A DNA stretch of 62,150 nucleotides, counting the filler, from Globobulimina sp. (Eukaryota): assembly GCA_003354225.1 (NCBI GenBank). It is 15 parts of 15 records of this genome, joined end to end, with 100 filler letters (N's around TTAATTAATTAA, not from the genome) between each part and the next. Parts side by side here need not be neighbours in the genome. Positions count along the whole stretch, not along the records: positions 37,371 to 41,418 come from PIVH01001686.1; 14 more parts are not named here. The stretch is one strand, 5' to 3'. The position numbers and the translations under genes were made by a program. Positions 18,129 through 50,306 of this stretch are shown here, one piece after another (position 1 is the first letter of the stretch; every line of letters begins with the position of its first letter). The notes under the pieces are model-generated. The model saw only the letters and a list, made by a program, of their open reading frames with translations. It was not told where the DNA came from and searched no databases.

Positions 18129-18641
18129 TTACGTTTGTGATAATTTATTAGGTAATTCACATAATAAATCAACAGAAATATGTGGATTATTTCTGTAATA
18201 TGAAATAATTTCTTTTTGTTTCTCCTTATTTTCCAATAATATTTTTCCAACTTTTTCTGCATTTTTTAATCCACATTCATCACAGCAATAATATTTTGCT
18301 TCTGTTTTATCATAAATATCTGGTTCATATTGTTTATCATAATAATAACAACTTTGACAAAACAATTTTGTATCCATTCCACATTGATTACATTTTTTTA
18401 TTCCACGACTATTCAATGAATGTCCTTTTATACATATCTTCTTTTGATTAATATCCGTTAATAATGATATTTTAATTTTTTTATTTTCTTTTTTTTCATC
18501 ATCATTATATGTATTTTTCTTTGGTTTATATCTTTGTTTTAATTCATCGATATAATCATTAACTGGTAACATCATTCTTTCTAATCTGTCTAACGATGTT
18601 TCAATTACTTTTTTTATTTTTATAACTTGCTGCTCTGTCAT
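18129..18641 (-). CDS. Zn-finger protein paralogous to the 40138 Zn-finger/GGDEF protein, truncated at the start of the GGDEF domain
   Basis: Shared CxxGH...CxxC...CxxC...YxCxxC pattern. RNNPHISVDLLCELPN aligns with RNPSLALDNLCGIPT. Confidence 0.55.
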   Translation of the reverse strand: MTEQQVIKIKKVIETSLDRLERMMLPVNDYIDELKQRYKPKKNTYNDDEKKENKKIKISLLTDINQKKICIKGHSLNSRGIKKCNQCGMDTKLFCQSCYYYDKQYEPDIYDKTEAKYYCCDECGLKNAEKVGKILLENKEKQKEIISYYRNNPHISVDLLCELPNKLSQT

Positions 18642-21495: not shown

Positions 21496-22580
21496 TTAAA
21501 TTTGAATGACAGTATTGTCCCCCGCTATATTGAGAACATTGGTGCGTCTCCCTTTAGCATTGCCATATAATCCATTAATTCGCACATTCGAATTCTGTGT
21601 TACTTGATTATTTTTATACATTCTATAAATTTTATTAATAACAAAAGTTTGCTTTGCTCTTCTTTCAGCCATTAACCTCAAATGTTTGTTGGATGTAAAG
21701 CGACTTTCTCGCCTCATCGCATATTTTGTATCATAACTGGTCATGTTTTGAACCACCGCCATCAACGATTCATCAATCTTGGTTTTGCTATGATGTTTTT
21801 TCCCTTTTCTCTTCTTATTTTTTTTATTTATTTTATCCATTGCTTTCAAATGAAGAGTACCAAACATTTCAGGCCTTAAAGTTTTTGCTTTTCTTTGCAT
21901 TTTAGCATCAAACTTTGGATTCTTCCGTTCGACTAACAATTTATCATTGGCTCTCCCAGTAAATTGCAATATATTTTGCATACTCAACGATTTATTCATC
22001 GTCTTATGATTCATATTCTTAATCCGCTGCAAATACTGCACTTTAAACGCATCCTTTGCATCTTTGATTTTTGTATAAAAGTCGACATATTTTTTCCGAA
22101 TTTCCATTTCAAATTCTTTCGGAAATAAATATAACTGCTTGCGAGGGATGGATAAAATCGTAGCATTGTGACTGATACACGACGCAGTGCACAAATTCAT
22201 AGCACATTCGCCGTCAATCGATTCCAATGCAAACCAAGCGCCGCGCGACAATGTGGAGATTAATAAGTGGAACGAGCGGGTAATCTCTTTGCATTCCCAT
22301 ATTGTCCCATGATTTATCGGATACTCATTGCATAATTGCAGCACAATTTCGTTGTTTAATATAATTTCACCATCCACCACTAAATAGATATGGTTCGCCG
22401 ACGTATCTTGAAAGTATAAGCATTCACCATTTGTAATCTTGTGATACTTCAATATGCGGATTATTTGTTGTTGCGAGGTTGCTGATAAAGTCTTGAAATA
22501 TTCCCTATGATTTAACAAAAATTGAGCATTCCGTTTTTTTTCTTGATCTAATAAACGATTTACAAACCACCAATGTTGAA
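21496..22580 (-). CDS. Cyclic-nucleotide-binding domain protein (eukaryotic), 5'-truncated
   Basis: GECLYFQDTSANHIYLVVDGEI and LSRGAWF cNMP motifs. The ORF-track N-terminus is merely antisense to the phage gene. Confidence 0.7.
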
Positions 22581-22594
22581 AAGGTATACATAAC

Positions 22595-23095
22595 ATGAAA
22601 CCAAACATAACCGAAATTATCGGCCAACACGTAAACCTGAAAAAAAACGGGCACAACCATTTTGGCCTATGCCCTTTTCATGTGGAAAAAACCCCGTCCT
22701 TTTCAGTATCGACCAGTAAACAAAAATTCAAGTGCTTTGGGTGTGGAATCGGTGGAGATGTTATTGATTTTATCCAGAAATATTTCAACCTGACATTTCC
22801 CGAAGCCAAACGACATTTGCAAATGGAACCGGACAAAAAAAGCCGGGAACAGATAGCGCGTGAAAAAGTGCAAGCGGAATTAGTGGCAGATTTCCGCGAT
22901 TGGGTTGCAAAATACAGCACAGATATAGGCCGACAGATTCGAAACGCACATATATGGCTTTCAAGGGCAACCCCAGAAGAGATTGAACAGTTCGGGTCTA
23001 TTTACCACGGGTTGACTATGTGGGAACACCGGCTTGATGTGATTATTAATGGAACGGATGTGGACCGCTTTAAACTATATCAGGAGATCCGATAA
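22595..23095 (+). CDS. CHC2 zinc-finger (DnaG-type Zn-binding domain) protein without TOPRIM, phage/prophage
   Basis: GLCPFHVEKTPSFSV...FKCFGCGIGGDVIDF. AAAGG upstream of the start. Confidence 0.9.
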   Translation: MKPNITEIIGQHVNLKKNGHNHFGLCPFHVEKTPSFSVSTSKQKFKCFGCGIGGDVIDFIQKYFNLTFPEAKRHLQMEPDKKSREQIAREKVQAELVADFRDWVAKYSTDIGRQIRNAHIWLSRATPEEIEQFGSIYHGLTMWEHRLDVIINGTDVDRFKLYQEIR

Positions 23096-24033
23096 TGGAC
23101 GATTTTAATTTAGGGGCAGCTTTAGAAACCGAAAAGAAAGCACTGGATGCCGAAACGTTCCGTGAAAGAATCGAAAATTGGCTTTTATTAGCACCCGGTG
23201 AGTTTTCAGTATCCGACATAGACAGAGACTTAGGCTTTCAATCGTCACAGCAAAAAACAGAACGCACGATTGCATTAGAATATTTCGTTACAAACGGGAC
23301 GCTTGAAAGGGTCGGTTCACGCCGGGGGTTGTATCGGCCATCTCAAAAAGACCTAAAGCGAATCGATTTTTTGGATTCAGACGACCGAGCCGTGAAAATT
23401 TGGTTGCCATTTGGGTTGAGCAGCATGGTTGAGATAATGCCAGGCAATATCATCATCCTGGCAGGGCAAGAGAACTCCGGTAAAACAGCTTTACTCCTGA
23501 ACATCATCCGATGGAACTTTAAAAAATGGGGGGTCCACTATTTCAACAGCGAAATGGGCGGTGGTGAGATGAAAAAGCGCTTGAAGCTGTTTGACAATAT
23601 CTCTTTGGCTGATTGGAAATTCAATGCATATGAGCGGGATTCCGAGTTTGCTGATGTGATTGTGCCGGGTGAAGGCAATTTGAACATAGTTGATTTTTTA
23701 GAGTGCCACGATGAGTTTTACAGGATGGGTGCCTATATCAAAGACATTCACGCGAAATTGGACGGCGCAATCTGTATCATAGCAATACAGAAAAACCCCG
23801 GCAGTGATGACGGCATTGGTGGCAAACGGACAATGGAAAAAGCGCGGCTTGCTCTGGCTCTTTCTCCCGGTGAATGCAAAATAACGAAAGCTAAGAACTT
23901 CAAAACAGAGAACAACCCCAACCAGGCGGTGTACAAATTTTTATTAGTAAATGGGTGCAAACTTGTAGAATCGGAACCCTGGCACAAACAAACCATAACT
24001 AAACTAAAAAAAAGCAAGGGGCAAACTCAATGA
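23095..24033 (+). CDS. RecA/DnaB-like P-loop ATPase (putative replicative helicase), phage/prophage
   Basis: Walker A ILAGQENSGKT, YFNSEMG, Walker B NIVDFLE. TAATG overlap with the upstream gene. Confidence 0.85.
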   Translation: MDDFNLGAALETEKKALDAETFRERIENWLLLAPGEFSVSDIDRDLGFQSSQQKTERTIALEYFVTNGTLERVGSRRGLYRPSQKDLKRIDFLDSDDRAVKIWLPFGLSSMVEIMPGNIIILAGQENSGKTALLLNIIRWNFKKWGVHYFNSEMGGGEMKKRLKLFDNISLADWKFNAYERDSEFADVIVPGEGNLNIVDFLECHDEFYRMGAYIKDIHAKLDGAICIIAIQKNPGSDDGIGGKRTMEKARLALALSPGECKITKAKNFKTENNPNQAVYKFLLVNGCKLVESEPWHKQTITKLKKSKGQTQ

Positions 24034-24760: not shown

Positions 24761-24916
24761 GGAATCACGACACCACTTCCGACGCGCGTCGTCGCACTGC
24801 CGGCGCCGACGGGTGCNNNNNNNNNNNNNNNNNNNNNNNNNNNNNNNNNNNNNNNNNNNNTTAATTAATTAANNNNNNNNNNNNNNNNNNNNNNNNNNNN
24901 NNNNNNNNNNNNNNNN

Positions 24917-27634
24917 AATTGTATCAATTATGTCAAATCCAAAGTAAATGACCAATGCGCAGCCACCAATACCAAAGATACGACTTTTCGGATCACTGGA
25001 ATATGTATATAATGAGCCATCCGGTACAAAATATAACTTATTTGCTTCCATCATACTGTCTTTCCACATATTTGCATATTCAATGCACTTAATTGAGTCC
25101 GGTAACGTATGCGGAATATATTTGTATACAAAACGGTTCACAAAGTTACCACAAACATAGGTCTTTGTGTCCATTGTATTCAATTCCAATGAATCTATGT
25201 ACCATTTCCAAAGTATATTCTTTTTCTTTTTGTCGTTTGGGATACACTTTATTTTCTCCTTGAAATCGTGGGCCATATTTATTTTGTAATAATACGGTTT
25301 TATCTGCCTAATAAAATCACATTTTTTTTGATAAAGGCCATTGTTCTTATTACATCTCAATAATTTTGAGAAAGACTTCGCATTTAAGCGCTTCATGAAC
25401 GCATCGAAAGTATTGAATCCATTGAAATTATTTCTTTCTAATGTCGACAGTGTATATAATTTATTATTGAAAATACGAATCAATTTGTTATATTCAACTC
25501 TAATCTGGTTACTATCGATCAAATTAATATATGTAGGTCCTGCATAATTTAGTAGTGATATCGCAGTTGCCTCAACATAATATTTCGCGACACCTACACT
25601 GATCCGACTATGTTTATCATCCAATAACTTGTAGCAGCTTCTTCTAATAACCCCCATATCTTTCAATATCTTCTTTGTGTGCAAATTAAACGTCCATTGA
25701 TTATCCAATTCCATCCCTAATATTACAAAACTATCGGAATGCTTGTGATTGGTTGCTCCGTCCATTGAGAATTTATATTTTCTATATTTCCGCAACCAAT
25801 CATACAATTTACTTTTGATAACTTTTTGATGAGTAATAAATTGTTCATATTCATATTTTTCCAATATCAAAATGCATTTATCATTGACTTCGTTGGTGCA
25901 GTAAAACCATATACTTTCCCTTATTGCATATTTTATGACATTATCAGCCAAATCAATATCCATTTGATTACGGTTCAAACATTTTTTCATTTGATTGACT
26001 GTAAATACATAATATGGTTTCTTGCGCTTTTGGGTTAATTTTTGGTTTCTGGCGATTATTATTCTTTGTAAACGTTGTATTATCGGAATGCATTTGGTAT
26101 ATTCTTGTTGAAATTGTGTTAGTTTTTGAAAATAATGATCTTGAAACACAACAATATGCGATTTATCATCATTTGTGGGGATGTTATTAACATTGAAATA
26201 TTCTCTCATAAAATCCATTGCATTCTGCATTTTCGGATACATTTTATTTAATATATTATAATACTTTTTGTTTGGCAGCAAATTGACAAAATCATTGATG
26301 GATATCGTACTGTTCATTGTCACCCTTTTATATTCCAAATTTAAGGCGTTTATTGTGGTGTTATTTTTATTTAATAGATGAATATAAAAATTCACGTCAT
26401 CCATTAATATTTTTGGTTGGATTTTAGCGATTTTAAAGCCACTTTTCTCATCATACAAATTATAGCTTTCATCCAAATGTTTACATCCAGGGTTTACGTA
26501 GACGCACCACGCAAAACCCGCAGGTTTAAATCCTTGCGAAAATAACGAATTTACAGGGACCAACATATCGGACTTTTGGTTATTTACTTTACAAATCAAC
26601 CTAACATTGCTTGTGAGTGACCTAAACATCGTAATTGCGGCCTCACTAAACCCACAATGATACTTCATTTTATCTTCAATGATTTCAGGGAACATAGAGT
26701 TGTAAGCACTGCTCGAGTCGTTCGACGTGAGTACAGTCGGAAAGCCACAACAAACCATATCATCAATGTCCGTAATCATATCAGCGAGGCAGTCCTCAGA
26801 ACCGCACGCCATTTTGGAGGCATATTGATGTATGGATAGCAGTTTATATTTCTCTGCATACTCTGTCATACGGTTATAAATCATATTTGTATATACTTTA
26901 AAAATATTTATTCCATATTCTAATGGGCGGAAGGAACCAATTAACCGCTTATCTTTACCAGCTTTGAGCAGCGGATTCATTAATCTCTCGTTCATATTAT
27001 TTGTAATTATTCCATTGTCTTTCCACCAATTAAAAACTAATAAAAACGGCTTTGATATTTGGTGCTCAGCGTGTTTGAGTATCATTAAATGTACAATGCC
27101 ATGATATGCTTTATTCGGATTACATTGATTCAGAGAATAATGGAATTCTGACTTTGTAAACGAACCAACTAATTTCTGCGAAGCTAATTTCCATTTTGCG
27201 ACCTCATCCAATTGGCATTGATTTAATTCATTGATATCCATTTCAGCCCATATTCTTGGTTTAAAATCGTATGGTTTATCCATTTCACGCGCTCTTTTTC
27301 TTGATTTTTTCACCGAAATATCATACATCGGATTCGATTCGTGTCCAATGGTATTCATATATTTTGAGATAATATTTGCTTTTGCTTTGTCATCAAATAT
27401 AAAATCGTCATATTTCAAATTCAGATTTTGATCATCCGAGATTTTTTTAATTGCAATTGAAGGCTTAATTAATTTCCCAATATTTCTATCATTGTTTTTA
27501 TCATCGATTCCATTCAATTTCTTTACCAAATTATACCAAGATTTTGTTTTAAACTCATTTATTGTTTTTAAGTCCTGTTTTGATTTATTTCTACGTTTAA
27601 TGTTACGTATAGTTCTACTCTTTAATCTATCCAT
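24917..27634 (-). CDS. Reverse transcriptase + RNase H portion of the LINE, partial
   Basis: About 905-aa uninterrupted ORF with non-LTR RT motifs. Confidence 0.88.
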
Positions 27635-28968
27635 TTATTTCCAGTTTTGGTATATGTTCCATCGCTTATGTCCAATTCTGTTAATTATCATTGTTTTCGG
27701 GCAATTTCTTGTGTTTATTCCACGTTTTTCATCCCATTTTTTTTTTATATTTACCACTGCTTTTATTACGGACTTATACTTTTTATAATATTTACGCGTA
27801 GATTCAATGATTTTTTTTGTTTCTTTGTTAAGTACCAATACTTTGCCCACTCGTTTTGTTATTTGCCCAAAATGGTATTTTGCCGAATTAATTATTAATT
27901 TTCTTGAGTGTTTCATTATCATTGAAGCCATTTTCTCATTAATCTGCTTATTCTGATTGGTTTCGTGGTGTTTATCAATTATATTCATCATTGACTCCAT
28001 TTTAATTTCTAAATCATTCTGAAATTTGATAATATTTTGATTTGTCATATTTTCAAGTTTCCAAAGCGTTTTTGTAAACCATTTCTTCTGTCTCACCATA
28101 TTTACATTTATTAGGTACATATGATTGGGATAATGGTCCGACAGCGTTGACGGCACATAATTGTTAATCGTTTTTATTCTGCCATTTTTATTAAAATTAG
28201 ACCAAACTGTATCGATTATAGACTCTTCAACTACGCCATATTTATTTGTTTTAAATCTGGTTTTCTGACCATACACATTTATGTTTTGAATGCCAATTTT
28301 CTTCATCGCACTAAACAGATGGTCTCCGTCAACGTATTTTTTAAGTATATTGTGTCTTATTTCATCATTTCTATCAATGGCACCAATTTGTTCAGATCTA
28401 ATGTTATAATCACCACCATTAAGGATTGTAGGAGCCATATCGTCCATATATTTAGTGATAAAATTATAGATAGTACGGATTTTAGATAGGTTGATTGCAT
28501 TCGGATTTGGTGATCTATAACAATTCCATAATACAATTTTATCTCTGTTTCGGTACAATTTATTCAATTTTAATACCACAGCACACGAATATATATTGTT
28601 CTGCGGCTCCGTTTCTATCAAATCATACGGAATATCAATGGAACTGATACTGTTTAGCAGAATATCGCTCACATAAATCGATGTAATACCAATAATATCG
28701 TTGGTGATGCGAGTCATACCACTCAGTTCTGCGAATTCCTTTTCTCTGGCAATTTTGTATCCTCTGTAGTTTTTAAAGCCGACCGTCTCTTGAAACATAC
28801 AAATATGCGGTCGGACTTCATTAATATATGTAATAATCTCCGCGTTTTTAATTGAATTCGCATTCATACCGCCATCCACATTCCATATTACTATATTTAA
28901 TTTACTGACTTTGTTTTTTTTTGAATTTTTACTGTGTTTATTTTTTATTTTTTTGTTTTTTATTTTAC
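27635..28968 (-). CDS. APE (EEP-family) endonuclease portion of the LINE
   Basis: Catalytic motifs intact. Ends at a TAA in frame with the RT ORF. Confidence 0.88.
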
Positions 28969-29195
28969 NNNNNNNNNNNNNNNNNNNNNNNNNNNNNNNN
29001 NNNNNNNNNNNNTTAATTAATTAANNNNNNNNNNNNNNNNNNNNNNNNNNNNNNNNNNNNNNNNNNNNCCTCACTCAAACTCCATGACTTCGTCATGTTG
29101 AGTTTTATTATAGCGACTAGATCACAGTCGATCACATTTATTACGTGGCAGTACCTCTTGTTAATTTTGGATTCGTTTATTAGTGGTGTGAAGGC

Positions 29196-31024
29196 TTGAA
29201 TCACTTATTTGATTTTAATACGGTTCACGAGACCCCCATCAATATTATTTTTGATGAATATGATTTTCAGCTCGGTCGTCATAGAAAAGACGTGTCAAAT
29301 ATTCAGTTCACGTCAGATATCCACAAAAGTGATCCGTCGCGTATCCAGATTTTGGAAGTTCAAGTCATATATCATCCAACCCTCAAGAAGTTGGTAAGCA
29401 AAGTCTCACCAAAAAAGACAGATCCCCACGCTTATCTGGATACACATTCCTGTCATCCGGGTTCAACGTTTACTGGCACAATCAATGGGGTCGCACTCCG
29501 TATTCGTTCAACCACTGATGATTGCTATTTAGACGCAGAAATGTATAAATATAAATGTTATTTGATAGCCCGGCATTACGACCCTTTATTAGTTAACACC
29601 ATTTTTAATATGTATGCATCATTGACAAAATTGGAGGCACTTCGTCGATGGAACCCGATGAAGAATGACATTTTACGTTTTAATCATAAGAATATTCGGA
29701 AAACGAACGTTGTTGTCAATAACGATCAGAGCGACAACACCGACGACTCAAAAGATGATGATGCTGCACCTGAATATACGCCGTGTGCACGTTTTATACA
29801 TAAGTTCCATCCGTTGCTTGAAGGTTTGTTTATCACTCTTTTAAAACAGAACTGGTCGAAGTATATTGCTGGAGATGCCATATTGACGACGCTGTTTCCA
29901 TTGTCTTTCTTCGCAGAAACGTGGCAAAGAGCTGGCTTGAATTTGAAAGAAAGACTGACTCCGAATCGATTTTATGACTCTAATCATAAATTAGCTATTT
30001 CGATGGAGCTTTCTCATTTCAGCCGGATGAAACTGACTATGATTGATCATCAATTATTTAATTGTAAGGATTTTATTTCTGATTTACGTCTCCGTGAAGA
30101 TGTTTATATTACCATTGACCACAAGCAATGTCGCCGCGACCTACTGAATGATTGGAAAGGATTCGTTCCGTGCTCTATCTTGAAACAGCGAGGCATCGTC
30201 AGGAATGTCAATGGTTTGTGCAATTGCAATACCACCACTCATTACGCAACCGTTCGAAAGTGGAATTGCCGAAACACCAATGAACTATTTAAGGTATCCC
30301 AGAAGTTATCATGTTTCTCAATGAACATTGTATACATTATTTATTGTGATCGCTGTGCGGATTTCTATGTTGGCAAAGCCGGAGCTGGTATAAATAATAC
30401 CCGCTGTTTACGTGATCGTAATAACGAGCACACGAAGAATATCTTGGATGTTTATAAAACATTGAATTCGCGCTCATTCTATGATGAAAATGGCATTATT
30501 CAGCAGCACAACTCATTAATTTTGAAGGGGATTATTAATACGATAATCGCGCAGAGCTATACCCGTGAAATCTTACATTTACTGGGTTGGATGGCACAAA
30601 TTGTTATAAGTTCAATATGAAAGATCCTTTGAAATTTTATAGGATATTCGCATTACGGCAATTTAATGAATTGACTCGCTCCCAATGTGAGGCAAAATTA
30701 TGTGAAAACGAAAAGTATTATCAAGGACAAATGTGCTCAGTTATTAAGGGCTTAAATGGATTAACGGATTTCAAGAAAATTGATACTTTTACGTCGGACT
30801 TTAAGAACAAAGTCAATCAAACTATGATCGACATGGAATCAAAATCGTTATTTAATTTTAAGAAAAATACTATGCGATTGCAACAGTATTTGATCGATAA
30901 TAATATTATATTTTCAGATATTTTTAAGGAATCTTTCGATGATTTGACGAATAAATTAGTTGACGACGAACGTGTCCCCATTCTGGACACTCTGCCTATC
31001 GAAATCCCCCATTCTCATCGATAA
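29196..31024 (+). pseudogene. PLE RT-GIY-YIG ORF with a frameshift near 30578
   Basis: Adding one T in CATTTACT restores ILHFTGLDG and joins ORF 29196-30620 to ORF 30587-31024. In-frame TAG at 29181. No catalytic DD motif recognisable. Confidence 0.75.
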
Positions 31025-37270: not shown

Positions 37271-37902
37271 NNNNNNNNNNNNNNNNNNNNNNNNNNNNNN
37301 NNNNNNNNNNNNNNTTAATTAATTAANNNNNNNNNNNNNNNNNNNNNNNNNNNNNNNNNNNNNNNNNNNNGTGACCGTCTTTTCCTTGTAAAGAGGGCAT
37401 AGGTTGACATGGTCATTCACAAAAAAAATTTATCAGTCACAAAAAATCGGGTAGCTTGAAATACTTTGAAGAGTTGAGATATCTCAGAAACATGTCACTT
37501 ATATTCACCCACAAAATATATGTACTATTTGGGCTTGTAATCAAAAGATGAGAACATGTGGATATCGATAATCAAAAGATATTTTCCTGTCGATGCACCT
37601 CTCCATATCACCATATTTGATTTTTGATTCGATCCATTCTCTATCATTCGATCTCACTCTTTTTAGTAGCCCCAATGACGCTTCGACATTAATGATTAAT
37701 ATTTTGGAGCCATCATTGATTACTCGAACTTTAGAGAATAAAGGAGCTGCAGTCACTGAATCAAATGGGCCATCACCACGGCAGATTTATCAATATTTTT
37801 CATTGAATGCCTCGTATTTTATGGGTACAAAAAGAAAGCTAGAATGGTGAAGCAAGCCGTTTTTATTTTATGCATAGAAAGATTCAAATCATTCAGTTCA
37901 AT

Positions 37903-38745
37903 TTAAATGGAATGTGTTGCAGCTAAGAAAACCTTCTGGACAAAGAATCCATCATTTTCTCTGTCTACAACACCATTATACACAAAATGTTCACCTTCGA
38001 TAAGTTTGTCAATTTGAATTACTTTTCGCTGGTTTTTGTAAAATGTGATTATATTTTTATTCAAATCAACACAAAATGAAATCCAATCATATCGATCATA
38101 ATCATATTTTTTATCAATTGTTTTGTATCGTCGCTCACCAAATGCATGAATTCTATGTCTATAATAATAAAATAGAGATTCTTTTTTGTTTTCAACATAA
38201 GCATATTCGCCGTATATTGATTTATCAATTATACCAATCCACATTTCTGAGCTTCTTCCTGTGACATATGTATCAATCCGAATATTCCCATTACATTCAA
38301 AAGTTAATAAATTCTCGTTATTTATCACATTTATAAAATCATTACTTGCATTGTCGAAGATGACTGTATTCAATTTCTCATTGAATGATAACTGTTTAAG
38401 TGCTGATTCTGATAACACTGTTTTATCAAATTGAAATGGAGAATAATTTGCATATTTTGCAATTTCATAAATTATATGCGATAAATTCTGAGTATATAAA
38501 AATGCGAATGATTTATTGTTATAAATTGCAACTTCAATTATTTTGCGTAAATTTGTTAAATTCTTTTCTGTTTCACCGAAATATGGACATGATAATTCAA
38601 ATAAAACTTTATGAAAATGATGGTGATCTTGTGGATAAATACAGTAATTATTGTCATCGTATAATTTAGGAATTAACTGATATTTAAAATGCAATATATC
38701 ATAAAATACAAAATACAGATCTCGAGCACATGGGATGAAATCCAT
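37903..38745 (-). CDS. SPRY-like domain protein
   Basis: MWIGII and DWISFCVDLNKNIITFYKN. Confidence 0.6.
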   Translation of the reverse strand: MDFIPCARDLYFVFYDILHFKYQLIPKLYDDNNYCIYPQDHHHFHKVLFELSCPYFGETEKNLTNLRKIIEVAIYNNKSFAFLYTQNLSHIIYEIAKYANYSPFQFDKTVLSESALKQLSFNEKLNTVIFDNASNDFINVINNENLLTFECNGNIRIDTYVTGRSSEMWIGIIDKSIYGEYAYVENKKESLFYYYRHRIHAFGERRYKTIDKKYDYDRYDWISFCVDLNKNIITFYKNQRKVIQIDKLIEGEHFVYNGVVDRENDGFFVQKVFLAATHSI

Positions 38746-38806
38746 TCCTCTGTTAATCCGCCTACTTAGTTATTACAACACATTACGCATTCAACAAGTA
38801 AGTTTT

Positions 38807-40084
38807 TTACAGTCTGAACACTTCATAAGAGACAACTTTCAGCAGTTGAACAAAATCATCATCAATAGCAGCTTTGTCAGAGAAATCCAATGCTGCCATA
38901 TTCTGTGCTATTTCTGGAAACATTCCTTCCGCTAACTCTGATATTTCACACAATTGCAAGTCTGCCACAAAATCACTTGCAAAATGCAACAATAATTCGG
39001 TTGGATCGATATAATATTTATCTACAAAACGTTTAACCTTTCCACCATGTGATATCTGTGTATAATTACTTTGCAACAAAATAGACCATGAAGCGTATGG
39101 TTTGTGTATTTCATTAATTATAACATCCCCATTTATATTCGAATTCCTTTCTGATTTAACTGAACATTCAAAACAATCGAATGAAACCGATGACAGTGTC
39201 ACTAATATATGATTATAATTGGTATATATGACAGTCAATGTATTTGTTATATCATTACATTTCTCATCAAATGCTTGTGCACTGTCACTGTTTGAAGCAA
39301 ATATCTTTTCTGCATAGAAATGCTTCACATCTCCGGATGCATTAAACATGAATCTCGAAATTTGCATTAAAACTAAAAAAATAAAATTTATTTGTCTCAT
39401 ATTCAATATATTCGAATCCATAATAAAGTCCCCATAAAAGTGGCAGCATAAAACTTTCATCGAATCTGGTATTATCATATTGTATTTATCCTCAATTTGC
39501 TCTCGAATATAACCAAAAAGCAATCCATAAATCATATGTTTTTTATCCGTAAATGGTGGAATGTTGTCATCATTTCTTAATTTATTCTTTTTATTTGATA
39601 TGGATTCACTTTCAAAGTGTTTATCCAATATAACATGATATTTCTCTTCGAGTTGCGGAAGATAGCGGCCTTCGATGGGATGCAATATTCCCAAAACACT
39701 ATGGATGGTATTCTGCCGCGTTGAGATGGATCGTAACTGATCTTGGATCGTTTGAAACTTTTCTCGCAGTTTGTCCTCGTCTTTCGAGAATATGTCTGCT
39801 TGCTGCTGTGCGTCTGCTATATTCTCATAATCATCTAACGATGCTCGTAAATTGCGCATTGCTTTGCTATATGCCTCCATATCTTTCAATACATTTTGTT
39901 CTTGGACTTGTATTTTATAACAAGATTGCCTCAATGAACTGTATAAGGCTGCTACTAAACGCACACACATTAATGTAATTTGCCATGGCTCCTCATGTGA
40001 TGCGTCTGTCTCAGTCTCTACACAAATGGTGTTGCTAGTGTTCAAATCTTGCTGTGTTGTCCGTTTTAGCTGATTTGATGCCAT
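38807..40084 (-). CDS. Coiled-coil + TLDc-like domain protein
   Basis: IFASNSDSAQAFDEKCNDITNTLTVIYTNYNHIL and terminal YEVF. Confidence 0.6.
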   Translation of the reverse strand: MASNQLKRTTQQDLNTSNTICVETETDASHEEPWQITLMCVRLVAALYSSLRQSCYKIQVQEQNVLKDMEAYSKAMRNLRASLDDYENIADAQQQADIFSKDEDKLREKFQTIQDQLRSISTRQNTIHSVLGILHPIEGRYLPQLEEKYHVILDKHFESESISNKKNKLRNDDNIPPFTDKKHMIYGLLFGYIREQIEDKYNMIIPDSMKVLCCHFYGDFIMDSNILNMRQINFIFLVLMQISRFMFNASGDVKHFYAEKIFASNSDSAQAFDEKCNDITNTLTVIYTNYNHILVTLSSVSFDCFECSVKSERNSNINGDVIINEIHKPYASWSILLQSNYTQISHGGKVKRFVDKYYIDPTELLLHFASDFVADLQLCEISELAEGMFPEIAQNMAALDFSDKAAIDDDFVQLLKVVSYEVFRL

Positions 40085-40137
40085 TATTATATGGATATTT
40101 AGAGGCAAACTGTAAATTTAGTCCAGTAAATTTAGTC

Positions 40138-41418
40138 ATGTCAACAGTGAATGAATTGATGAAGTCATTAGAAATAACATTAGCAGCATTAAAGAACAAA
40201 GGCAAATCCATCAAAGATATATTATGGGATCTAATCATAAAATATGATGATGACAGATACAAAAATGAAGAAGAAAAAGAAACTATTAACTGTAGAAAAA
40301 ATCAGTGTGAAATCTCGAAACTCGTTGATTTTAAAAATGTGAATAGTATGTGCGACAAAGGCCATTCTATGATGACCCGCAGATCCGGCGGACACCGGGA
40401 TGTCTGCAATGATTGTCGCAGCACTGAGGATGTCAAAGGATGTTTGCTGTGCTGTATCCACGATGTATATAATTCAGGTGGCGGCAAACAATATTTATGG
40501 TGCAAGAAATGTAGAACACACAACGTTTATCAGTTAAATATCAAATGCCAAAGAGATGAAGACAAAAGAAAGATTATTAGGAGCATATTATTCAGAAATC
40601 CCTCATTAGCTCTTGATAATTTGTGTGGTATCCCCACAGCACTCCATTTCTGTCAAACTGTGAATGAAATTGTAAATTTGGATACGTTGCAGCGAAGCAC
40701 GTATACGCTGTATCTGATCAGTTTGGATAATTTGAAAGGCATTGGCAGTGCCATTGGAACAGATGGCGCTGACAAACTGGTGGCTGATATGGCGGAAATA
40801 TTCAAGAAGCGGCAAATGGAAATCAATGATAACATTTGGAACAATGACAGAGAGGGATGGATGCATCGAATGTTTATATTTAGGTTTGCCATTTACTGTC
40901 AATGTTTTTTTTGTAATTTAATACATAGATTTTATACTTAAGACAAAGTGAGAATGAATTTTCTTTAATTGTGCAAAGTGGGAATGCTTATGGTGGATAT
41001 CAAGAAAAACAAGGGAGATTTTATAAATCGTGGAATAAAGATATGTTTGCAGTTTGCGACAAATATTTATCCGACATTTCAGTAGAAACTGCAGAAAAGT
41101 CCTCAGCTGAACTTCGAGAAAGAACCAGACGGAATATATTGTCGTCAATGGAGGGATTGAGCATAGCAAACGATATAAAATATAAATTGAATGAAGCAAT
41201 AAACAAAAAAACATTTAATTTATCATTGGGTAAGATATCGGTTGGAATGTATTGTATTAAGTTTCCTTTCCCCAAACAACAGAGCAATGACGATTGGATC
41301 AAAGGCGCGCAGAGAGCCCAGGGGATAGTAAAAACATTGAGGGGTAAAACGGACATAAAAATATTTACGCAGTATAATGATAAATATGAAGTTGTGGACG
41401 GCAATTCGTTTTGGAATA
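40138..41418 (+). CDS. Zn-finger + degenerate GGDEF-domain protein with a spliceosomal intron, partial
   Basis: DNLCGIPT, ISLDNLKGIGSAIGTDGADKLV; intron 40884-40942 gives FRQSENEF; then ISVG and AQRAQGIVKTLRGK. Confidence 0.7.
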
Positions 41419-41518
41419 NNNNNNNNNNNNNNNNNNNNNNNNNNNNNNNNNNNNNNNNNNNNTTAATTAATTAANNNNNNNNNNNNNNNNNNNNNNNNNN
41501 NNNNNNNNNNNNNNNNNN

Positions 41519-49813: not shown

Positions 49814-50306
49814 TATCTTGGACCACATTCTTTATATCTTTCTTAGTGCTGCAACCTGCAAATTACGAGTATTTATATTAATTATTAGTGCATAGTGCAT
49901 ATATTTTGTTACCTGATTTAGCAAAACCATCACAAAATTCTTTTTTCTCATAAATACCCATTTCATCGCAATGTAGATGATAAGCGATGATTAACGTGTC
50001 GTGGGACTCGGGATTGACAGAACAGTCTTTGAAAAACTTTAGCATCCCCTCTTCGGACATGATGTCGGGATCTTCTTTGTCGCCATAGGATTTCTTGAAA
50101 ATTGTGCCTAATTTCGATGTTGAACCCTTTTTGGATTGTTTTGATGCTTTGTTAGTATAACAAGAACGACATAAGTCATAATTACATGTACGACAGCCCC
50201 ACATTTCTTGATATAAACTCATTTTTTTGCGACATAAATCACAAGTGTATCCACGATGCGTTGTACTAAATCTTTTTAGACCATGCCATCCTGGACATTG
50301 CGCCAT
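49814..50306 (-). CDS. DCN1-like neddylation co-factor with N-terminal Zn finger, partial
   Basis: EGMLKFFKDCSVNPE...LIIAYHLHCDEMG...EFCDG (PONY domain). CDLC...GCRTCNYDLCRSC. Intron near 49856-49912. Confidence 0.8.

Follow-up and report, generated by a model that had tools for sequence, protein, structure and literature searches.

A spliced GGDEF gene with a degenerate active site in the foraminifer Globobulimina and a family of relatives that mostly look active

Does a foraminifer carry a GGDEF gene of its own, and what could become of a copy whose active site has degenerated? GGDEF domains were called entirely absent from eukaryotes in 2010 (PMC2904730), and cyclic dinucleotides are described as only occasionally introduced into eukaryotes (PMC13375341). 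The characterized eukaryotic exception is DgcA of Dictyostelium, which makes c-di-GMP as a stalk signal (PMC5055082). The question is raised by a gene (the focal gene) in the assembly of Globobulimina sp. (GCA_003354225.1; 70 Mb, 48,370 contigs). The stretch of DNA analyzed here, referred to as the window, has 62,150 nucleotides and consists of contigs of about 4.1 kb strung together by N linkers. The focal gene lies at 40138..41418 on the plus strand, at the end of contig G000:C1686 (window 37371-41418).

We analyzed the structure and splicing of the focal gene. Exon 1 (40138..40883, plus strand), delimited by its open reading frame and by contigs from related sequencing runs, encodes residues 1-248 and two bases of the Arg249 codon. 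The related-run contigs start at 40126 (X3) and 40136 (X6), that is, 2-12 bases 5' of the ATG, which fits transcripts. The exon is followed by a GT..AG intron of 59 nt (40884..40942, plus strand; 22% GC) in phase 2 within the Arg249 codon. Seventeen GT..AG pairs restore an open frame, this one among them; exactly the stretch 40884-40942 is absent from the contigs of all four public runs (three samples, three studies), and the 16 remaining frame-restoring choices were dropped because the runs show only this one. Read depth in the intron-containing bin and the next bin was 41.9 and 74.4, 9.03 and 16, 5.93 and 10.5, and 6.51 and 11.6 in the four runs, amounting each time to 56% of the adjacent bin, as expected with 59 of 135 bases uncovered. 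The intron is very likely removed from spliced mRNA, the type of these runs being unrecorded or guessed and none being on record as RNA. The same intron had been predicted, and a failure to splice it named as grounds for refutation, in an earlier reading of the DNA alone (the sequence-only reading), and it is the one skipped in the contigs of all four runs.

Exon 2 (40943..41418, plus strand), supported by homology and by runs X6 and X8, encodes residues 249-407 and is 46% identical to residues 260-418 of a related protein, P0002 (E 4e-36). The contig end cuts it one codon before the stop: with the window made of contigs that linkers hold together, the frame meets no stop in it and stays open as far as the linker of N's at 41419. 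In runs X6 and X8 (~97% alike) a single further Lys codon precedes the stop, which gives the focal protein about 408 amino acids, with no further domain and no EAL. A fused C-terminal EAL domain past the contig end was ruled out, since the frame in X6 and X8 ends after that one codon, and a lipoyl-synthase-like gene after 41518 was rejected as a neighbor because it lies on another contig. The focal gene is a nuclear, spliced, eukaryotic gene. This agrees with the sequence-only reading, which had preferred a nuclear gene to contamination: splicing is seen in all four runs, and the named relatives are all foraminiferal.

Elsewhere in the window, positions 22580-24033 (plus strand) hold open reading frames for a CHC2 zinc finger of the primase type (E 2e-29) and a DnaB-like helicase, with higher GC, which appear to be bacterial or phage DNA within a eukaryote-looking contig. 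Long open reading frames at 24869-29020 (minus strand) and 29184-30620 (plus strand) resemble, by eye, retroelement endonuclease/reverse-transcriptase genes, with no Pfam match at E up to 0.01.

The focal protein is laid out, from N to C terminus, as a helical hairpin, a Cys/His module with eight ligands, a stalk helix and a GGDEF domain. Against an HMM made from 98 bacterial-type GGDEF domains, the spliced protein reaches 33.8 bits, compared with 4.4 bits for the best shuffle control (200 shuffles, 136 scored), and splicing lengthens the HMM match from position 76 to 131. With exon 1 alone, Pfam GGDEF (PF00990) gives E 0.0071 and 16.6 bits, against a gathering cut-off of 23.8 bits that 17 of 18 scanned relatives pass. 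Motifs start at residues 160 (DNLCG), 194 (ISLDNLK), 200 (KGIGSAIGTDGAD), 249 (RQSENEF) and 379 (KTLRGK), and every GGDEF motif quoted in the sequence-only reading was recovered in its place. The N-terminal half of the domain (40615..40883, plus strand), assigned from PF00990 and column counts, has changed residues at S195, G203 and T208 and keeps K200 and D212. At 40947..40961 (plus strand), SENEF stands instead of GGDEF and, judged from the relatives' columns, the second metal ligand is gone. A two-helix insertion follows at 41067..41225 (plus strand), with approximate boundaries taken from the alignment and the P0002 model, and the domain closes with a C-terminal strand (ISVG) and the last helix (41235..41351, plus strand), where phosphate-binding K379 and K384 are kept. 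The insertion, modelled in P0002 as helices 302-323 and 331-343, is common to one subclade containing P0002, P0019, P0020, P0025 and others.

Structural comparison points the same way. P0002 is 43% identical to the focal protein over 398 columns, and its model (pLDDT 79.7) contains the palm (RRM-like) fold and matches the GGDEF structures of DgcB, WspR and SadC with a best E of 6.8e-10; among the matches listed for this model there are only GGDEF structures. The homology proposed from the sequence alone is thus upheld by the HMM score against shuffles, by the relatives passing the Pfam cut-off and by the fold of P0002, and descent of the focal family from a bacterial-type diguanylate cyclase is the best explanation.

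To examine the distribution of the family, a profile made from five of the assembly's own paralogues was searched against 1.84 billion representatives. The top of the best 150 in this search is taken up by some 50 proteins that share the N-terminal architecture; among the closest are P0002 and P0001 (44% over 291 columns). An HMM built from the family detected the Cys/His module in 52 of 162 retrieved proteins, in none of 98 bacterial-type proteins and in none of 124 metagenome or viral loci. Among 28 family proteins that were looked up, 14 have a named source, and all of these are foraminifera (11 from Bolivina argentea, two from Nonionella stella and one from Elphidium margaritaceum); the other 14 are metagenome-type. 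The sequence-only reading had spoken of a rhizarian system, of which the foraminiferal part stands, but the wider term exceeds the data, since every named relative is foraminiferal. A word-index homologue search with exon 1 yielded none among 227 candidates, and a search of the ESM Atlas with the relative P0007 returned bacterial GGDEF clusters only. In scans of metagenomes (best 80 of 254) and viruses (44 loci), the matches were to ordinary GGDEF domains, 23-40% identical, and DNA of the family was not among them.

Some relatives are predicted to carry ankyrin, PH, SPRY or E2 domains, and some of these fusions may be assembly artefacts. Specifically, P0008, P0010, P0014, P0015 and P0028 show PH plus SPRY domains, an ankyrin region inside the Cys/His module, or an E2 domain, and some of them may be transcript chimeras.

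A quick tree of 98 rows was built, for which 60 of the 98 bacterial-type domains were drawn at random and the label "bacterial" was assumed from motif and architecture. In this tree, 32 family rows fall on one side of a branch (SH-aLRT 91), and the focal protein groups with P0001 and P0002 (SH-aLRT 99) on a branch of 0.71, compared with 0.19 and 0.23 for these two. Four other eukaryote-type GGDEF rows have long branches and an unsure place. The tree names no donor and allows a single origin of the family. The relatives also carry a trace of the intron: 44 reach the signature site, of which 27 read GG[DE]E, 14 appear to read into an intron and three read otherwise. These 14 continue with Arg followed by Phe, Cys or Leu and then diverge; an Arg with a codon starting in T after it would result if gene calling ran on past an AG|GT donor located as in the focal gene. 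Judged from the relatives' proteins, the position of the focal intron is apparently common to the family and old.

We next compared the active site of the focal copy with that of its relatives. According to PMC7288161, the Mg ligands of PleD are D327 and E370, its guanine contacts are N335 and D344, and K442 and R446 hold the phosphates; D327, N335 and D344 are there termed essential and E370 a metal ligand. The focal protein shows the changes D195S, N203G, H208T and GGD to SEN (S251-E252-N253), and it retains K200, D212, R249, E254, K379 and K384. Its Mg-ligand positions are S195 and N253, where Asp stands in 45 of 47 and in 28 of 28 relatives, and the guanine-binding Asn, present in 45 of 46 relatives, is G203. 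At the guanine-reading Asp (the PleD D344 column) the focal protein keeps Asp, and the family has D in 39, N in six, E in one and S in none. Ser at this position is the Hypr criterion, according to PMC7288161, and this mark of cGAMP synthases was found neither in the focal protein nor in the family column. The RxxD I-site, five residues before the signature, is absent from the focal protein and from 27 of 27 relatives, while three of five bacterial controls have it.

With both Mg ligands, the guanine Asn and the GG of GGDEF lost, the focal protein is almost surely not a cyclase, and the degenerate active site that the sequence-only reading had recognized is real. From these residues, the focal copy is very probably a pseudo-enzyme, unable to bind catalytic Mg or to read guanine properly. 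The relatives are otherwise: GG[DE]E is present in 27 of the 28 with readable sequence at the signature, and the full catalytic set (Asp, Lys/Arg, Asn, Asp, GG[DE]E) in 25 of the 27 that reach it.

The N-terminal half begins with a two-helix hairpin at about residues 4-40 (40147..40257, plus strand), a predicted dimerization element that forms the core of the P0007 dimer interface. It corresponds to helices 8-24 and 29-52 of the P0002 model, and the hydrophobic pattern of the core positions of the dimer interface is kept in the focal protein. Next comes the Cys/His module (40351..40524, plus strand), defined by its conserved ligands as C72-x2-G-H76...C90xxC93...C102xxC105...C122xxC125 with N129. 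The putative Zn ligands C72, H76, C90, C93, C102, C105, C122 and C125 are 87-100% conserved among relatives covering them, and the ligand pattern suggests that the module probably binds two Zn ions. The N-terminal Zn finger of the sequence-only reading needs correcting in that the module starts at residue 72, behind the helical hairpin, and has eight putative ligands. The module model has a pLDDT of 81.6. Fold searches with it gave at best Z 3.5 (ZAD, rmsd 2.8, 56 aligned) and C1-type rows at Z 2.2-2.9, with nothing above background, a result that argues neither for a new fold nor for the absence of a known one; Foldseek returned no match at E up to 0.001, the ESM Atlas no usable match, and a Pfam scan of exon 1 no zinc-finger match. 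Elsewhere in the window, at 49878-50306 (minus strand), a CxxxH...CxxC...CxxC...CxxC module matches ZZ and C1_2 at E about 1e-4; its ligand order is like that of the family's Cys/His module, without the long loop.

From the module, a long stalk helix and linker (40525..40614, plus strand; P0002 and P0007 models) lead into the D-x-L-x-G turn of the GGDEF domain. The stalk is helix 132-162 in the P0002 model, and its residues 137-156 touch across a dimer model of P0007. This model was built for P0007, an intact relative, as a homodimer with GTP and Mg alongside three controls; P0007 belongs to another subclade, without the insert, and is 28% identical to the focal protein. The homodimer scored 0.61, compared with 0.02 for the best control, and its runs share at least 92% of contacts with a pLDDT of at least 79. 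The predicted interface comprises residues 5-42, 55-59, 137-156, and 161-179 and 244-245 of the GGDEF domain, with contacts tightest in the N-terminal helices and next in the stalk and GGDEF faces. In a microbial calibration, 20 of 30 solved pairs attained this score mark, as did 1 of 23 monomers; among eukaryotes, 17 of 29 pairs attained it, but only 1 of 7 pairs without an older solved relative, and 0 of 30 monomers. Because GGDEF dimers have already been solved, P0007 may owe its pass partly to those known structures. The model supports, short of showing it, dimerization of this intact relative via its N-terminal helices.

Within the Globobulimina assembly, family matches occur on 10 contigs. 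Three copies are degenerate (the focal gene, L011 and L022, the latter two apparently intronless), and five are fragments or broken copies (C1681, L008, L009, L018 and L028). L014, whose first half is intact, is the closest partner of the focal protein in the assembly (38% identical) and is cut by its contig end before its signature. L010 (G000:C20767), with its 5' end missing, has a complete motif set and is spliced, with a 209-nt GT..AG intron at a site different from that of the focal intron; by its motifs it is the best candidate for an active cyclase in the assembly. The paralogues with an intact GGDEF for which the sequence-only reading had suggested a survey thus exist, both in the foraminiferal family (the 25 with the full set) and, as L010, in the same assembly. 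A second family member lies in the window at 18129..18641 (minus strand), found with P0007 at E 1.8e-34: it comprises the hairpin, the Cys/His module with all ligands and the stalk, and stops just after a DLLC motif at the start of the GGDEF domain. This copy, on another contig, appears to be either a truncated duplicate or the product of a chimeric contig.

Several further loci in the assembly deserve mention. L008 and L009 are near-identical and have a common frameshift just before RQGG, being broken duplicates or amplification chimeras. L006 and L011 each have one in-frame TAG in an otherwise continuous GGDEF frame, which may mark a pseudogene, a sequencing error or read-through or, as was also considered, a variant genetic code. 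At least six more eukaryote-looking degenerate GGDEF genes (L004, L005, L006, L012, L013 and L015) have other architectures, namely membrane, ankyrin, SAM-like (by eye) and glycine-rich; L004 has a EukProt relative that is 59% identical. At L001, L020, L032 and L036, bacterial-looking reading frames (GGDEF, EAL, PilZ, HD) are joined to eukaryote-looking genes, probably through chimeric assembly.

Compared with known systems, the family stands nearest to the stalked bacterial GGDEF cyclases (WspR, PleD, DgcB, SadC, SiaD, DosC; PF00990, TIGR00254). It shares with them the palm fold and motif order, the stalk helix running into the D-x-L-x-G turn, a predicted dimer (in P0007) with GGDEF halves touching and, in most relatives, the full catalytic set. 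Unlike them, the focal gene is nuclear with an intron and has an unclassified Cys/His input behind a hairpin; in addition, a strand-forming insert replaces the RxxD region, a two-helix insert occurs in one subclade, and the focal copy lacks catalytic residues. Dictyostelium DgcA is likewise a eukaryotic GGDEF protein, but it belongs to a different eukaryotic supergroup, and the focal family is multigene with dead copies. Degenerate bacterial GGDEF proteins (CC3396/PdeA, PelD, FimX, LapD, YybT/GdpP) similarly keep the fold and have lost catalysis (PMC7288161). Whereas these act via EAL, DHH or an I-site, the focal protein has neither RxxD nor a downstream domain, and it belongs with paralogues that share its architecture and are catalytically complete. 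C1/DC1, ZZ and treble-clef fingers also have four Cys/His ligand pairs, and C1 and ZAD appear in the weak fold rows (Z 2.2-3.5). The order of ligand pairs in the focal module, which we take to resemble that of DC1, is combined with a long, helical loop separating the third pair from the fourth, which distinguishes the module from C1/DC1 and ZZ.

Searching the fragmented assembly exon by exon, we found no eukaryote-looking EAL, HD-GYP or PilZ gene. Matches in the assembly number one for EAL, two for HD_5 and five for PilZ, and by eye every one of them looks bacterial, so the EAL and HD-GYP partners for which the sequence-only reading had suggested a survey were not found there in eukaryotic form. 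A full system of the c-di-GMP-related kind that it considered possible is so far unsupported, the turnover and receptor matches being bacterial-looking. A literature search, with most subscription papers and supplements outside its reach, found nothing on GGDEF, diguanylate or c-di-GMP in foraminifera and nothing related on GGDEF in Rhizaria; foraminiferal genome and transcriptome papers may tabulate GGDEF domains. Within that search, a GGDEF domain in this architecture and lineage was not found described, and the family mostly looks active.

Taken together, these observations suggest the following function. Intact members would dimerize through the N-terminal helices and stalk, bringing two GTP-loaded GGDEF halves together to form c-di-GMP, and the Cys/His module would be sited to pass input to the stalk. 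We infer that intact members are likely to be dimeric c-di-GMP synthases with Cys/His input via the stalk. The focal pseudo-enzyme might have been kept as a protein because it could still pair via hairpin and stalk. Its likeliest job would be that of an inactive subunit which, as a partner of active paralogues, damps or positions them, since ring closure fails in a cyclase dimer of which one half is dead. The reading as a whole, a spliced family member with active relatives whose dead focal copy acts as a damping or positioning partner, is tentative, with a chance that we place just short of even.

The main rival to this reading is that the focal gene is a redundant duplicate under relaxed selection that has lost catalysis and is decaying although still transcribed and spliced, which we consider possible at a rather low probability. 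It would account for the long focal branch in the quick tree and for the paralogues that are truncated, frameshifted or interrupted by stops (18129-18641, L008, L009, L011, L018). Among the codon differences between related strains listed for the focal gene, seven are non-synonymous and three synonymous (12 and eight in the neighbor gene); with seven of 10 non-synonymous, strong constraint on the focal gene is not evident. Yet the focal protein differs at 55 of 150 sites common to P0001 and P0002, and despite these at least 55 lineage-specific replacements its frame has no stop, where about 4.3 would be expected under neutral decay (P about 0.013). The coding pieces listed for the four runs contain no indel, while the flanks have several, and all eight Cys/His ligands are kept. 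Other conserved sites are kept in 25 of 30 non-catalytic cases, compared with seven of 13 at the active site (Fisher p 0.06), so that active-site losses are not significantly enriched.

Alternatively, the dead GGDEF domain might act as a nucleotide sensor that binds GTP or c-di-GMP and signals via the stalk and Cys/His module. The retention of K200, D212, R249, E254, K379 and K384 would suit this, and PMC7288161 offers precedents in the GTP-binding degenerate GGDEF of Caulobacter CC3396 and the I-site receptor PelD. However, RxxD is missing from the focal protein and 27 relatives, although three of five bacterial controls have it, the protein has lost its guanine-binding Asn along with both ligands of the metal, and no output domain follows the focal GGDEF, which makes a sensor unlikely. 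The focal protein might instead be a scaffold unrelated to c-di-GMP, with its module and helices binding protein or lipid and its intact relatives making another nucleotide or nothing. In keeping with this are the ankyrin, PH, SPRY or E2 domains predicted in some relatives (some of these fusions may be artefacts of assembly), the roughly 14 among 50 weak fold rows that we take, from their entry titles, to be C1-type, and the failure to find eukaryote-looking c-di-GMP turnover genes in the assembly. Against it, the guanine-reading residues are conserved (Asn 45/46, Asp 39/46) with no Hypr Ser, and the full catalytic set stands in 25 of 27 relatives; we regard it as about as unlikely as the sensor. 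The sequence-only reading had offered "nucleotide sensor or scaffold", of which the sensor is weakly supported, given the lost ligands and the lack of RxxD, and the better fit is a scaffold or partner. Contamination by bacteria, or chimerism of the contig, had to be excluded because the assembly contains bacterial-looking GGDEF, EAL and PilZ fragments and apparently chimeric contigs. It is refuted in substance and scarcely credible: a spliceosomal-type intron is removed in all four runs, the named relatives are foraminiferal only, none of the prokaryotic and viral sequences examined has the module, and contigs from other samples also span the SPRY-like neighbor gene.

Returning to the reading of a dead partner among active paralogues, a broader and more doubtful scenario is that foraminifera run their own c-di-GMP signaling, separate from that of Dictyostelium. 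An early uptake of one bacterial GGDEF gene would have been followed by an intron in the active-site motif, a new Cys/His input and expansion into active dimeric cyclases without product inhibition, together with dead dominant-negative paralogues; the messenger would be cleared and read by proteins other than EAL, HD-GYP and PilZ, or be aimed at associated bacteria. Since the focal gene is a dead copy, its interest lies mostly in the family that it exposes. With an expanded, intron-bearing family whose catalytic motifs are complete, represented by three or more named genera, foraminifera would be the second lineage of eukaryotes to use a GGDEF enzyme. The intact relatives hint that foraminifera may produce a messenger regarded as almost exclusively bacterial. 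What the focal gene contributes is a pairing of enzyme and pseudo-enzyme with identical architecture, a possible mode of regulation, along with an unclassified Cys/His module.
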